Assembly (NCBI GenBank): GCA_028281365.1 | Contig: JANQJZ010000044.1 | Coordinates: 29,818 to 93,817, forward strand | DNA: 64,000 bases | From: Gammaproteobacteria bacterium | GTDB taxonomy: Bacteria > Pseudomonadota > Gammaproteobacteria > Eutrophobiales > Eutrophobiaceae | Reading direction: 5' to 3' | In this document: positions 2,669 to 34,213 of the stretch, piece by piece | Layout: every line of letters starts with the position of its first letter | How positions within the stretch are numbered: position 1 is the stretch's first letter | Translations under genes and position numbers: made by a program | Notes under the pieces: generated by a model | The model's database searches: none | What the model was told of the DNA's origin: nothing | Seen by the model: only the letters and a program-made list of their open reading frames with translations

Positions 2669-3331
2669 TTAATTTAAAACTACCCGATACAGCTCATGCC
2701 CACTTTCGTAATACTTCTTCTCAAACGGGCTGATAAAATCTTTTATATCGACATTATCTATTGATGTTTTTTTGTTTGTGACTATATCCAATGCGAATTT
2801 AAATTCCTCTGCATAGATCTGCCAGTTGGTTCTTAATTCTATTTGATCACTTAGACCAACCATCTCAGGAAAAATCGGATGTCCCTGCCAACGTCGTTTT
2901 AATTGATCTTTTTTCGGCCAGGGGTTTGGATAAAGCAGGTAATGTTTTTTTATGTTCCAGTTTGTTTTTTTTGTTAAACGCCAAATGTCAACAATATCTG
3001 CCCTGACAAGGATTAAATTATCTTCATGATAAACCGTTTTATCTTTTATTAATTTATCCAAACGTTTTTCAGATTTATCGATACCGATAATTAAATTATC
3101 AGGATAAATTTTTACCAGGTTAAAACTACTCTCACCCGTGCCACAACCCGAATCAAGAATGATAGGTTTGTTAACCTTTTTTTGTATTTCATCAACCTGA
3201 TGAAAGATGTCTTCAGAAAATTCCCGATACGGTTTTTTATATGGGTGCGATAAATGTTTTTTAACTATCTGTTCGAGATCTTTGTGAATACCCGATTGAT
3301 TACTGCTAACAACGTTTGATCTTTTCGTCAT
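2669..3331 (-). CDS. trmB: tRNA (guanine46-N7)-methyltransferase
   Basis: LDSGCGTGE SAM-binding motif, PNPWPKK motif, 220 aa. Confidence 0.85.
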   Translation of the reverse strand: MTKRSNVVSSNQSGIHKDLEQIVKKHLSHPYKKPYREFSEDIFHQVDEIQKKVNKPIILDSGCGTGESSFNLVKIYPDNLIIGIDKSEKRLDKLIKDKTVYHEDNLILVRADIVDIWRLTKKTNWNIKKHYLLYPNPWPKKDQLKRRWQGHPIFPEMVGLSDQIELRTNWQIYAEEFKFALDIVTNKKTSIDNVDIKDFISPFEKKYYESGHELYRVVLN

Positions 3332-4218
3332 TAATCCTGAAATTGAATAACGGATTGCGCCTCAAACACCGGCCCATCGACACAAACGCGTTTCATTGCC
3401 GGGCCGTTATCGGTTTCGATTAACACCGTACAACCCGCACAACCGCCTACAGCACAAGCCATGTATTCTTCCAAAGAAACCTGACACGGTAGATCATATT
3501 CTCTTGCCAGTTGTGCAACGGCTTTTAACATCAGTGTCGGGCCGCAGGAAAAGATCTCAACTTCCTTACGTTGATCTTTATCAAGATTATTCAGCCAATG
3601 CCGGGCGAGATCGGTGACATAACCATTAAAACAGCCGGGATAGTCTTGCAGACTTGTTAAACGTGATGGAATCCCCCAATCGTCCAGTAATGGCATAGAT
3701 GCAATTACTTCAGCAGGCATTCCGTTTAGTATGATTTGTGATGGTCGGCTTTTAAATGGAAACGGGATCTCTGATCCCATGATAACCAGAGGATTTAAAT
3801 CTTTTGTCGTATTTTTTATATGTTCTGCCAGGAACACCATCGGCGGAATACCTACACCGCCACCAATCAATAAAGGTCGTTTTTTATATTTATCCAGTTT
3901 AAATGATTGTCCTATCGGGCCAATCAGATCAATTTGATCACCGACGTTGCGTTTTGATAAAAGATCGGTTCCTTCACCATGCACTTTATAGAGAACATCA
4001 ATCGTATTTTCTTTCGCATTACTACGCATGATCGACATGGGTCTACGCATGTATAAAACCGGATCGCATTGCATATGAATAAAATGACCTGGCCTGGCAT
4101 GGGCAGCAGTCTCCGGTGCCTGTAAGCGCATATGGAATTGTTGTTCGGCATATTCATCTTGCGAAAGCAGTTCTGCCTGTTCCACATATAATGTGTTTCG
4201 TGTTGCAGGATGTGTCAT
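3331..4218 (-). CDS. PyrK-like FAD/NAD(P)-binding oxidoreductase with C-terminal [2Fe-2S] (DHODH electron-transfer subunit / NfnA / SudB family)
   Basis: FNR-like fold (RPMSIMS, GGGVGIPP) and C-terminal CAVGGCAGC...C cluster motif. 1-nt overlap with trmB. Confidence 0.65.
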   Translation of the reverse strand: MTHPATRNTLYVEQAELLSQDEYAEQQFHMRLQAPETAAHARPGHFIHMQCDPVLYMRRPMSIMRSNAKENTIDVLYKVHGEGTDLLSKRNVGDQIDLIGPIGQSFKLDKYKKRPLLIGGGVGIPPMVFLAEHIKNTTKDLNPLVIMGSEIPFPFKSRPSQIILNGMPAEVIASMPLLDDWGIPSRLTSLQDYPGCFNGYVTDLARHWLNNLDKDQRKEVEIFSCGPTLMLKAVAQLAREYDLPCQVSLEEYMACAVGGCAGCTVLIETDNGPAMKRVCVDGPVFEAQSVIQFQD

Positions 4219-15953: not shown

Positions 15954-16826
15954 TTATTTATTTTTATGTTCCATTAGGTCATTTATTACAGGTAGCAATA
16001 TTAGTTGCATTGCAAATACTTTTTTACCTGCTGGAACAACTATTGTATCCGGACTCGACATCGACGATCCGCCGAGCATTTCCAACAAATGGCGAAAATC
16101 GACATCTATCTTTTCGCGATTACGAACATGTATCACACTATAACTTTCGTCATTACTTGGAACATAATCGGTTGCAAATGGATTAGATGTATCAATAGTC
16201 GGTACACGCTGAAAATTTATGTCTGTGCGCGAAAACTGTGGCGTAATATAGTTAACATAATCATACATGCGACTTAATATCAGTTTCGTTGCATCTTCAG
16301 AACTATAACCCCGGATGGCCCGATCACGATGGATCTTTTGCATCCATTCCAGGTTAATAATCGGTGTTTCTCCAATTAATAAATCTACATGTTGTGCTAC
16401 ATTAACAGTATCTGTAACAACTCCCCCATGTAATCCTTCATAAAAAAGTAAATCGGTACCTTCTTCTAACGGTTCCCAGGCAGTTAGTGTCCCTGGCGGA
16501 TGTCCGTGTTGTGAGGCCTCTTTTTCATCATGTACATAAAAACGACGTTGTCCCGTCCCGGTTTCTCCATATGATTTAAATAATTCCTCCAGTTCTTCAA
16601 ACAAGTTTCCTTCCGGCCCGAAATGGGTCAGGTTTTGCCCCTGTTCCTCAGCCTCTGCACTGAGCTTATCCATTTCAGCCCGGTTATATCTGTGAAAACA
16701 ATCGCCTTCAATTACCGCCGCTTTAATACCATTTTTTCGAAACATGTATTCAAACGCGTCTTTCGCGATGCTGGTTCCAGCACCGGATGATCCCGTTACA
16801 GCAATTATCGGATGTTTGGCTGACAT
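15954..16826 (-). CDS. prk: Phosphoribulokinase
   Basis: IIAVTGSSGAGTS P-loop and PRK family signature, 290 aa. Confidence 0.85.
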   Translation of the reverse strand: MSAKHPIIAVTGSSGAGTSIAKDAFEYMFRKNGIKAAVIEGDCFHRYNRAEMDKLSAEAEEQGQNLTHFGPEGNLFEELEELFKSYGETGTGQRRFYVHDEKEASQHGHPPGTLTAWEPLEEGTDLLFYEGLHGGVVTDTVNVAQHVDLLIGETPIINLEWMQKIHRDRAIRGYSSEDATKLILSRMYDYVNYITPQFSRTDINFQRVPTIDTSNPFATDYVPSNDESYSVIHVRNREKIDVDFRHLLEMLGGSSMSSPDTIVVPAGKKVFAMQLILLPVINDLMEHKNK

Positions 16827-31612: not shown

Positions 31613-33064
31613 ATGACAAATAACACTTTATTTTTGTTTCGCAATGATCTCCGGTTAAACGATAACACTGCATTGAGTGCTGCCTGTCAGACAAATCAAC
31701 CTGTTATTTTTTTATATATACTTGATGAAAAAGCCACTAATGACAGGTATCACGATATCGGTAGTGCCAGTCGCTGGTGGCTACATCACAGTCTATTTTC
31801 ACTTTCTATCGAAATAGAAAAATTTGGCGGATATTTAAATTTAAGAAAAGGTAATACACTCAAGATACTTAATGAATTTATTGACAAGGAAAACATAAAC
31901 AAACTTTATTTTAGCCGGGGATACCAGCCCCTGGAAGTAAAAACAGAAAATGAAATTTACGCACGTTGGCATAAAAAAATAGAACTCAAACGTTATGCTG
32001 GTTACTCGTTATTTGAACCCGAACAGATTCATGCTGCCAATGGCCAAACATATAAAGTCTATACACCATTTTGGAAAGCCTGTCTTAAACAGCCAATACC
32101 TGCATTAAAAAACAAATTTAAACCACCAACAAAAAAAACAAGAAAAAAATTCAGATCAGATAATCTTAAAGATTGGAAATTATTACCATCCAAGCCTGAT
32201 TGGTCTAAAGGTTTTAATCAATACTGGTGCCCGGGTGAACAGGGTGCAATTCATGCATTGAATAAATTTCTGAATAGTGGATTCTTTGAATATGATTATG
32301 GGCGTAACAGACCAGATCTGGTAGCTACTTCTCGTTTATCAGCACATTTACATTTTGGAGAAATCTCTCCTGCAAGAATCTGGCATGAAGTAAAAAATTT
32401 TACTAACAAACATAATATTGATCATGTGAATTTAACCAGCTATTTACGGGAACTGGGCTGGAGAGAGTTTTCAACACACCTGCTGTTTAATTGGCCTGAA
32501 CTAGCAAATAAACCTTTTAAAAAAGAATATAAGACATTTCCATGGAGACGGAACAAAAAAAACTTAACAGCATGGCAAAAAGGACTAACAGGGTATCCAA
32601 TAGTTGATGCCGGTATGCGTCAACTCTGGTATAGCGGTTGGATGCATAACCGGGTCCGAATGATCGTCGCATCATTTCTGGTTAAACATTTATTGATTCC
32701 CTGGCAAGACGGAGAAAAATGGTTTTGGGATACTTTAGTAGATGCTGACCTGGCCAATAATGCGGCAAGCTGGCAGTGGGTTGCAGGGTCAGGTGCCGAT
32801 GCCGCGCCTTATTTCAGAATATTTAACCCGATACTACAGGGGAAAAAATTTGATCCTCATGGGAATTATGTAAGGGAATGGGTCCCGGAAATTCGTAAAC
32901 TTTCAAATGACGTGGTGCATGAACCATGGCTGGCAGATAAACAGCAGCTATCGAATGCTGAACTTGCACTGGGTGTAAACTACCCTAAACCTATTGTTAC
33001 GCATGAAAATGGCAGAACACGTGCTTTATCAGCATTTAAAAAGTTTAAATCAGGATCAAATTAA
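31613..33064 (+). CDS. phrB: Deoxyribodipyrimidine photolyase
   Basis: FRNDLRLNDNTAL N-terminus and FAD-binding C-terminal domain, 483 aa. Confidence 0.85.
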   Translation: MTNNTLFLFRNDLRLNDNTALSAACQTNQPVIFLYILDEKATNDRYHDIGSASRWWLHHSLFSLSIEIEKFGGYLNLRKGNTLKILNEFIDKENINKLYFSRGYQPLEVKTENEIYARWHKKIELKRYAGYSLFEPEQIHAANGQTYKVYTPFWKACLKQPIPALKNKFKPPTKKTRKKFRSDNLKDWKLLPSKPDWSKGFNQYWCPGEQGAIHALNKFLNSGFFEYDYGRNRPDLVATSRLSAHLHFGEISPARIWHEVKNFTNKHNIDHVNLTSYLRELGWREFSTHLLFNWPELANKPFKKEYKTFPWRRNKKNLTAWQKGLTGYPIVDAGMRQLWYSGWMHNRVRMIVASFLVKHLLIPWQDGEKWFWDTLVDADLANNAASWQWVAGSGADAAPYFRIFNPILQGKKFDPHGNYVREWVPEIRKLSNDVVHEPWLADKQQLSNAELALGVNYPKPIVTHENGRTRALSAFKKFKSGSN

Positions 33065-33263
33065 TGGTTATTGTTAACCAATTTACTGGTTAAATAGAAC
33101 CAATAATTTAACTTTTAGCATACATTTGAAATAATAATGTTCTATATAAATTATTGATATATATAATGAAATTGTAATTTTACAGTTTTTGGCACAGTAT
33201 CTGCTGTATCTATAGTACGTAAAGTAATTTACTTTTTTGTTAACCTAAAAAGAGGATAGAACA

Positions 33264-33338
33264 ATGAAATGGGAAACACCTGAATATAACGACATTCGTT
33301 TTGGTTTTGAAGTCACCATGTACATCAACAACAAATAA
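33264..33338 (+). CDS. pqqA: Coenzyme PQQ precursor peptide PqqA (24 aa, not in ORF track)
   Basis: MKWETPEYNDIRFGFEVTMYINNK matches the PqqA consensus W.KP.YTDLRIGFEVTMY, with the conserved E-x3-Y crosslink residues. AAGAGGA RBS 7 nt upstream and an intrinsic terminator 28 nt downstream. Confidence 0.85.
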   Translation: MKWETPEYNDIRFGFEVTMYINNK

Positions 33339-33365
33339 GACTTCCTTCTCGAAAGAGTAAATAAA

Positions 33366-33394
33366 AAAGGGACTACAAAGTCCCTTTTTTATTT
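33366..33394 (+). terminator. Rho-independent terminator (AAAGGGACTacaaAGTCCCTTTTTT)
   Basis: 9-bp stem, 4-nt loop and T6 run directly after pqqA. Confidence 0.8.
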
Positions 33395-33592
33395 GCGCGA
33401 TTATTATTATCTCTAAATAATCTGTAGCTGATTTTCTGTTATACAACAATTTCTTTCGCTTTATAGAGTACCTTGTCTGCTCTTTGCAATACTGAATTAA
33501 AGTTCATGATTAAAATATTATGCAGCCTGCAATAGAGGTTAGACGTTTCCCGATCAAAGACTAAAAAGTATTATTTATTGAACAGGGCGATA

Positions 33593-34213
33593 CTAGTTTG
33601 CAGCACTTGCCCTTTCTTTATCGACGAGCTGGTTAACTATTTTTAGAAGATTTGAAAAACTACCCGCAGTTGAGCCAGTTACCATATATTTTCCATTCAC
33701 TATAACAGCGGGAACACCGGTTATTTTATAGCGTTGCCCCATAATATATGCCTGCTTGACCTTGGTTTCAGTTTCTTCAGATTGATAAACCTTCTTGAAT
33801 TCATCATCATCAATTCCCTGTTTAATGAAGAATTTTCGTATAGCAGAATCATCATGAATGTTTTTTTTGTGCTTATGAATTGCGCTAAACAATGGACTGT
33901 GAACAGTATCCAATACACCCAGCTTTTCTGCAGTAAAAAAAGCGCGGGCATGAGGAATCCAGCTTTTTCTAAAAATTCCTGGCATACGTCTGAACTCGAC
34001 ATCATCTGGCTTGTTTGCTAACCAGTCATGAAGATAAGGTTCGAATTCATAACAATGAGGACAGGCATACCAGAATACTTCTAATACCTCTATCTTATCA
34101 CCGGTTTGTGTAGGTTGAGCAGGTTCAATATCAACGTATCCATCTGCCGCATAAAGATAAGGAGTAAATACAATAAAAACAGAAATTGTTAATGATATGA
34201 TAAGTTTTTTCAT
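33593..34213 (-). CDS. dsbA: Thiol:disulfide interchange protein DsbA
   Basis: CPHC active site, signal peptide, 206 aa. Confidence 0.85.
   Translation of the reverse strand: MKKLIISLTISVFIVFTPYLYAADGYVDIEPAQPTQTGDKIEVLEVFWYACPHCYEFEPYLHDWLANKPDDVEFRRMPGIFRKSWIPHARAFFTAEKLGVLDTVHSPLFSAIHKHKKNIHDDSAIRKFFIKQGIDDDEFKKVYQSEETETKVKQAYIMGQRYKITGVPAVIVNGKYMVTGSTAGSFSNLLKIVNQLVDKERASAAN

Follow-up and report, generated by a model that had tools for sequence, protein, structure and literature searches.

The short ORF at positions 33264-33338 of the stretch of DNA analysed here (64 kb in all, called the window below) very likely forms a self-contained transcription unit for PqqA, the PQQ precursor, with the genes pqqBCDE encoded elsewhere. 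The ORF is a real pqqA gene, with its own translation and termination signals, and is conserved in sequence and in chromosomal position. The coding sequence and the predicted elements around it are as follows.

33065-33080, no strand assigned: upstream activator site 1, perfect palindrome TGGTTATTGTTAACCA (TGGTT-N6-AACCA), directly after the phrB stop codon
33087-33102, no strand assigned: upstream activator site 2, perfect palindrome TGGTTAAATAGAACCA, its centre 22 bp, or two helical turns, from that of site 1
33147-33159, minus strand: IHF-like site, TAAATTATTGATA; the minus strand reads TATCAATAATTTA, matching WATCAANNNNTTR
33190-33205, plus strand: sigma-54-type -24/-12 promoter, TGGCACAGTATCTGCT, of the form TGGCAC-N5-CTGCT, with GG at 33191-33192 and GC at 33203-33204
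33250-33256, plus strand: Shine-Dalgarno sequence AAGAGGA, whose GAGG ends 8 nt before the ATG
33264-33338, plus strand: pqqA coding sequence, 24 codons plus stop, encoding MKWETPEYNDIRFGFEVTMYINNK
33357-33396, plus strand: intrinsic terminator, with the core stem-loop and T-run at 33369-33390 (GGGACT-ACAA-AGTCCC-TTTTTT)

The peptide matched two curated PqqA models over their full lengths, at about twice the cut-off in each case. These were Pfam PF08042 (E 3.1e-11, 43.4 bits against a cut-off of 21.1; profile positions 1-19 of 19) and the NCBIfam PqqA equivalog TIGR02107 (E 1.4e-12, 47.1 bits against a cut-off of 20; positions 1-21 of 21). As a criterion for PqqA we used a peptide of about 20-40 amino acids with a Glu and a Tyr three residues apart, and the window peptide carries this E-X3-Y pair as Glu16-Val-Thr-Met-Tyr20. 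The Glu and Tyr of this pair are the residues of PqqA that are turned into PQQ. A degenerate DNA pattern for IRFGFEVTMY matched once in the window, with 0.00 matches expected (100 shuffles), and the core-peptide pattern had no second match anywhere in the 64 kb. No Rfam family was found at the locus, and no sequence relative of the peptide in the PDB. On the 5' side lies the photolyase gene phrB (31613-33064, plus strand, PF00875/PF03441), and on the 3' side a convergent DsbA gene (33593-34213, minus strand, PF01323). The original prediction, made from the letters of the DNA, had described a PqqA-coding ORF between phrB and dsbA that retains the cross-linked Glu and Tyr, together with its own AAGAGGA ribosome site and an intrinsic terminator, and all of this held up.

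GGAG or GAGG was found at the same distance from the start codon in all inspected relatives. The core of the terminator has a 6-bp stem with four G-C pairs, a 4-nt loop and a run of six T, and A/T pairing extends the structure to 33357-33396. The predicted fold has a free energy of -24 kcal/mol, against -9.3 +/- 2.5 for shuffled sequences (z -5.8; 0 of 200 shuffles were as stable). A consensus terminator scan gave no match at pqqA; we regard this as an artefact that is overruled by the folding, because the A and T tracts pair with one another and so consume the T-run that the scan looks for. Inspected relatives likewise have a GC-rich hairpin 15-40 nt after the pqqA stop codon, mostly with a T-run after it. 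The A- and T-tracts of the window terminator are symmetric and lie about 200 nt downstream of the convergent dsbA; the terminator at 33357-33396 is potentially bidirectional and may also stop dsbA transcripts.

The region between phrB and pqqA appears to hold a regulatory module that extends the picture given by the original prediction and adds modest interest to it. The putative -24/-12 box, TGGCACAGTATCTGCT, matches 10 of the 11 specified positions of the sigma-54 consensus TGGCAC-N5-TTGCW, and the pattern TGGCAY-N5-YTGCW has a single occurrence in the window (both strands searched), at 33190-33205. Perfect TGGTT-N6-AACCA palindromes are found just twice in the 64 kb, both times upstream of pqqA. 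The IHF-like site at 33147-33159 is an exact match to WATCAANNNNTTR, which we take to be the IHF consensus. In enhancer-activated sigma-54 promoters the dyad activator sites are found about 80-150 bp upstream, and an IHF site commonly lies in between; glnAp2 and nifH are NtrC-type sigma-54 promoters of this kind, in which an upstream activator site is combined with an IHF bend. Judged by its motifs, the combination of palindromes, IHF site and GG-N10-GC core in the window is such a classical enhancer-dependent architecture. Like glnAp2 and nifH, the predicted pqqA promoter has GG-N10-GC, dyad sites about 100-120 bp upstream and an IHF site between them, and its dyad sites are spaced by two helical turns, as in that architecture. 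It differs from those promoters in that the target is a 24-codon gene for a cofactor precursor. A sigma-54-dependent promoter, not an ordinary housekeeping one, most likely drives the window pqqA, with a transcription start that we infer to lie near 33216. Neither rpoN nor a gene for a cognate activator is present in the 64 kb.

Relatives of the gene were collected with a metagenome scan for the pattern FGFEVTMYINN, which returned at least 120 rows, mostly marine contigs; the C-terminus YINNK of the window peptide marks a subgroup of pqqA genes. Among the matches listed, the -24/-12 motif was found in 65 of 85 INNK-type and 24 of 40 INNR-type upstream regions, compared with 2.7% of random windows, and in 0 of 24 Methylococcales-type and 3 of 53 Methylophilaceae-type pqqA genes. 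In most YINNK-type genes among these matches the distance from the motif to the start codon is at most about 140 nt, and mostly 50-110 nt. We then aligned on the -24 box the 72 unique upstream regions of pqqA genes of the window type among the matches listed. At least one TGGTT-N6-AACCA palindrome is present in 67 of these 72 listed regions (2.0% of control windows) and at least two in 38 (0.4% of controls), and their centres fall mainly about 94, 116 and 138 nt upstream of the -24 box, two helical turns apart. IHF-like sites 37-48 nt before the box occur in 47 of the same 72 listed regions, against 7-13% of controls. Among the matches listed, the module precedes pqqA genes of the window type in all of their four unrelated genomic contexts. 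Upstream of the pqqA of Methylohalomonas lacus, at a distance of 78 nt, lies TGGCACGGGAACTGCA.

These comparisons bear on the simplest alternative, that an ordinary sigma-70 promoter (TTGGCA-16-TATAGT, 33189-33216) drives a constitutive spare pqqA and that the sigma-54 features are coincidental. This sigma-70-like site, which overlaps the predicted sigma-54 box, matches at 10 of 12 positions and stands at a suitable distance from pqqA, in an AT-rich upstream region where -10-like hexamers are frequent. However, sigma-70-like sites are not enriched upstream (5 found, 3.6 +/- 1.5 expected), whereas 72 diverged upstream regions among the matches listed have conserved the spacing of GG-N10-GC, palindromes placed helical turns apart and the IHF-like site, and a sigma-70 match explains neither the conserved spacing nor the palindromes nor the IHF site. 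We therefore consider a constitutive sigma-70 promoter improbable and retain the sigma-54-dependent one.

No pqqB, pqqC, pqqD or pqqE was found in the window by tblastn with 43 PqqB, 31 PqqC, 22 PqqD and 28 PqqE proteins, nor any XoxF/MxaF (methanol/ethanol-type PQQ dehydrogenase) with 9 queries; the best E value over all queries was 0.027. The queries were taken from related loci and their family identity was confirmed with NCBIfam. With these 124 PqqB/C/D/E proteins the search agrees with the original prediction, which had noted that these genes are missing from the 64 kb and had offered two explanations, an additional copy that supplies a pqq operon at another place in the genome, or a RiPP precursor that stands by itself. 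For the latter, nothing supports another maturase: no PqqE- or PqqD-like sequence was found in the 64 kb, and the neighbours within 10 kb of pqqA are housekeeping genes. The former is favoured by an unlinked layout in a complete relative, by a PqqB in a closely related MAG, by operons in AT-rich relatives and by the shared cis module.

The complete relative, ERZ25074583 ctg10007 (2,754,404 bp), was found with the PqqB of locus L158 (GC 0.40, YINNK-type pqqA-pqqB) and the window PurK as protein queries. Its pqqA, encoding MKWETPAYNDIRFGFEVTMYINNK, comes immediately after phrB at about 2.07 Mb, some 1.3 Mb from pqqBCDE at 0.71-0.74 Mb, and no pqqA precedes its pqqB. The gene order of the window is repeated at 2.07-2.09 Mb (nuclease, M48 peptidase, cytochrome c, DsbA, GGDEF protein and photolyase) and continues with PurK, PurE, DctP, UvrD, PmbA and MoxR. 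In another complete relative, of 2.21 Mb, pqqBCDE likewise lacks a pqqA beside it. The MAG GCA_022360385.1 is closer still to the window organism, being 97% identical in PurK and 96% in L25, with PurE and HemA in the same 90% clusters. The accession of the MAG's PqqB, MCG8380070.1, differs by five or six from those of PurE/PurK (MCG8380075/76), and we assign this PqqB to the same assembly because the numbers are near-consecutive. The 90% PqqB cluster that contains MCG8380070.1 also includes contigs of AT-rich relatives (GC 0.37-0.39) with pqqA-pqqBCDE. Because these relatives and a MAG that is 96-97% identical encode pqq enzymes, the window organism very probably has pqqBCDE elsewhere in its genome. 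It may also carry an operon-linked pqqA, since the operons of the AT-rich relatives hold their own; if the same is true here, the copy beside phrB is an extra. Alternatively, the window copy may be the only pqqA of its genome, as in the 2.75-Mb relative.

The pqqBCDE genes of ERZ25074583 ctg10007 sit among genes for tetrahydromethanopterin synthesis. At loci L250 (6495-9671 and 13157-13945) and L262 (4324-7519), pqqBCDE is found among DUF6513, DUF447 and 4HFCP-synthase genes, and the same stretches encode pterin-4a-carbinolamine-dehydratase and pterin-binding (dihydropteroate-synthase-like) domains; we read these neighbours as tetrahydromethanopterin/methanofuran-synthesis genes. As pqqBCDE is embedded among such genes, the arrangement suggests that the lineage oxidises C1 compounds.

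Several PqqB sequences were considered as the window genome's own. The candidates P0068, P0050, P0014 and P0348 were rejected, as they come from samples other than SRR20820735, the Logan sample in which a 14.8-kb copy of the window locus occurs, and P0351, on an unannotated NCBI contig of 100,160 bp and 92% identical to the PqqB of the close relative, could not be assigned. The tracing of those four candidates to other samples, and the lack of a pqq enzyme gene in the 64 kb, would fit a genome without pqqBCDE, in which pqqA is a peptide or RNA regulator, the substrate of some other maturase, or a relic. Judged by PurK, the nearest complete relative (2,664,267 bp, 75% identical) is absent among the best 120 PqqB matches, which would point the same way, but weakly: the match table gives contig data for cluster representatives only, and we rejected the conclusion that this 2.66-Mb genome is without pqqB. 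Set against this, GCA_022360385.1 encodes PqqB; the syntenic 2.75-Mb relative has pqqBCDE with no pqqA of its own, so that an unlinked copy is necessary there; neither the Glu/Tyr core nor W3, P6, D10 and R12 of the leader differ from those of operon-linked copies; and the promoter module is common to orphan pqqA and pqqB. A genome without pqqBCDE is thus highly improbable, and we continue with a precursor gene that serves enzymes encoded elsewhere.

The coding sequence is under purifying selection. Locus L092 encodes an identical peptide with 4 synonymous changes, and its flanks do not align with those of the window; loci L044, L085, L110 and L014 differ from the window pqqA by 1-3 substitutions and 5-8 synonymous changes. 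Among the matches listed, 105 unique INN-type coding sequences show 704 synonymous and 250 non-synonymous codon differences, with conservation of residues 13-23 partly by construction, as the collection scans required the core including E-X3-Y, which is invariant in every relative collected. In the same 105 listed sequences W3, P6 and R12 never vary and D10 hardly does, at positions left free in the metagenome pattern. The idea of a chance ORF in an AT-rich spacer, which could appeal to a length of only 24 codons and to the many ORFs of such size on both strands here, can be dismissed, given E values of 1e-11 to 1e-12 against two curated models, a pattern expected 0.00 times, and more than 100 independent contigs in which the peptide recurs while its DNA carries synonymous changes and its flanks are not conserved.

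Chromosomal position is conserved as well. In at least 17 marine metagenome contigs purE-purK and pqqA are followed by dsbA and cytochrome c4, with neighbours 59-83% identical to those of the window. At L222, phrB directly precedes pqqA, as in the window, and L254 (GC 0.394, PurK 75% identical) repeats the gene order of the window over 20 kb. On four marine contigs this purK/dsbA slot holds tandem pqqA genes about 125 nt apart (L131 1012-1212, L154 1110-1313, L173 4709-4905 and L220 3000-3200), with a sigma-54 box close to the upstream copy only.

Other homes of the gene recur. At least 11 further contigs, and Methylohalomonas lacus, have pqqA beside homologues of the window genes at 2669-4218; a second pqqA or remnant was sought in the window at 2467-2668, downstream of trmB/pyrK-like genes, and this interval contained no activator-site or sigma-54 motif. 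At a third recurrent home (L092 1679-4603; also L110, L124, L164, L187, L237, L241 and about 30 other loci) pqqA is divergent from genes for a sensor histidine kinase and a sigma-54-dependent response regulator, and on the 3' side lie cytochrome b561, L,D-transpeptidase-like and DUF302-like genes, none of which is in the window. In at least 21 contigs a YINN-type pqqA stands directly before pqqB or pqqC. The high-GC YINNR-type loci L125, L129, L132, L151, L152, L197, L205 and L213 have the order pqqA-pqqC-pqqD-pqqE, a cluster without pqqB; at L152, pqqB lies about 3.5 kb off on the opposite strand.

Orphan pqqA genes are common and of an already known kind, especially in C1-oxidising bacteria, and the window gene is in this respect largely ordinary. 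A genome scan (one genome per species) for the core RFGFEVTMY gave at least 120 stretches, nearly all from methylotrophs; the sources were Methylophilaceae, Methylococcales, Methylophaga and Cycloclasticus among the matches listed. The matches listed contain 129 pqqA genes, 42 of them followed by pqq biosynthesis genes and 56 unlinked (the sequence continues for 1 kb or more past pqqA and the 8-kb block lacks any pqq gene); the remainder comprises 27 that could not be judged and 4 with pqq genes elsewhere in the block. Methylomicrobium lacus has linked and unlinked copies (L096 and L093), as do several MAGs. Methylophilaceae have been described with 3-12 pqqA copies per genome and a single pqqBCDE set (PMC4109929), M. 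extorquens AM1 with 'orphan' pqqA2 and pqqA3, and Methylovorus sp. MP688 with five pqqA copies (PMC11317620). In Methylophaga and some Burkholderiales (L030, L112, L116, L115, L121 and L089) the unlinked pqqA adjoins a sensor kinase and LuxR-type response-regulator pair, which lies before pqqA or divergent from it and is distinct from the sigma-54 two-component pair.

With the pqqA of canonical pqqABCDE(F/G) operons (Klebsiella, Pseudomonas, Acinetobacter, Methylorubrum extorquens) the window gene shares its length class, Glu-X3-Tyr and a hairpin after the stop codon. Unlike those genes it has no pqqB next to it, is a separate unit from promoter to terminator, located between phrB and dsbA, and lies tens of kb or more from any pqq enzyme gene. 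The extra pqqA copies of methylotrophs resemble it more closely, being unlinked single-gene loci, in their case in genomes with one pqqBCDE set. The window lineage differs from them in belonging to other, mostly uncultured marine gammaproteobacteria, with the C-terminus YINNK and a conserved purK/dsbA chromosomal slot, and at least one relative appears to have no pqqA but the unlinked one, near neither end of the operon, so that this copy is not a spare.

The cis module is not confined to pqqA. A palindrome and a sigma-54 motif also precede pqqB at five loci, and the 2.75-Mb genome is included here.

L250, 9730-9890: palindrome and box before the pqqB operon
L243, 1608-1725: palindrome and box before the pqqB operon
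L260, 4555-4715: palindrome and box before the pqqB operon
L262, 7578-7740: palindrome and box before the pqqB operon
L256, 3573-3735: palindrome and box before the pqqB operon

Whether or not the pqqB operon of a relative includes a pqqA, the palindrome stands about 100-145 nt before a TGGCAY-N5-TMGCT (TCGCT or TAGCT) box. Because relatives carry the pqqA-type module before pqqB, the unlinked pqqA and the pqqBCDE operon probably form one co-regulated regulon. Genes for a histidine kinase and a sigma-54-dependent response regulator adjoin pqqA at about 36 loci or more, and relatives also encode sigma-54-type response regulators beside pqqE; the idea that these two regulators near pqq genes are one orthologous activator was rejected, as they are only 31% identical. 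Our literature search turned up no description of a sigma-54 promoter for pqqA, only incidental co-mentions of RpoN/sigma-54. In Pseudomonas, pqq control has been ascribed to the regulator AgmR (PMC12997753).

Based on the conserved motifs, transcription of the window pqqA could proceed as follows. An NtrC-type enhancer-binding protein would bind the two TGGTT-N6-AACCA palindromes about 100-120 bp upstream of the promoter, bending of the DNA at the IHF site between palindromes and promoter would assist looping, and sigma-54 initiation at TGGCAC-N5-CTGCT (33190-33205), with a start near 33216, would give an RNA of about 175 nt ending at the hairpin at 33369-33390. Following the established PQQ pathway, PqqD would bind the PqqA leader, the radical-SAM enzyme PqqE would cross-link Glu16 and Tyr20, a peptidase would release the linked pair, and PqqB and PqqC would finish the cofactor; relatives place these enzymes elsewhere in the genome. 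We tentatively extend this model, as a possibility that we find about as hard to accept as to dismiss, to PQQ synthesis as a whole. In abundant, largely uncultured marine gammaproteobacteria with H4MPT/PQQ genes it might constitute a sigma-54 regulon, in which one TGGTT-N6-AACCA activator would serve both pqqBCDE and one to several dispersed or tandem pqqA genes. The supply of precursor by a stand-alone pqqA would then be a control point that is tunable on its own and possibly rate-setting, and the adjoining kinase and regulator could provide the input, perhaps a C1 or lanthanide signal.

Elsewhere in the window, positions 235-2466 hold small minus-strand ORFs (191, 193 and 163 aa) to which no function was assigned, beside a 98-aa ORF that, judged by eye, looks like a RelE/ParE-type toxin; these ORFs may form a small accessory island at the start of the window. 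A 290-aa ORF at 15954-16826, with the N-terminal P-loop MSAKHPIIAVTGSSGAGTS, is by eye a candidate phosphoribulokinase.

For annotation, these results illustrate that short-ORF cut-offs hide real genes such as the window pqqA. Scoring PQQ capacity from operon structure alone would wrongly give an incomplete pathway, because the operon of a close relative has no pqqA of its own. Unlinked pqqA genes are already known, so the gene itself adds little to the biology; in at least one relative, however, the 'orphan' pqqA is the copy on which the operon depends. The shared module of sigma-54 box, activator sites and IHF site before pqqA and pqqB, found in more than 70 diverged marine sequences, offers a testable regulatory model for PQQ supply in widespread marine C1-oxidising bacteria, and its DNA motif could be used to find the rest of the regulon.
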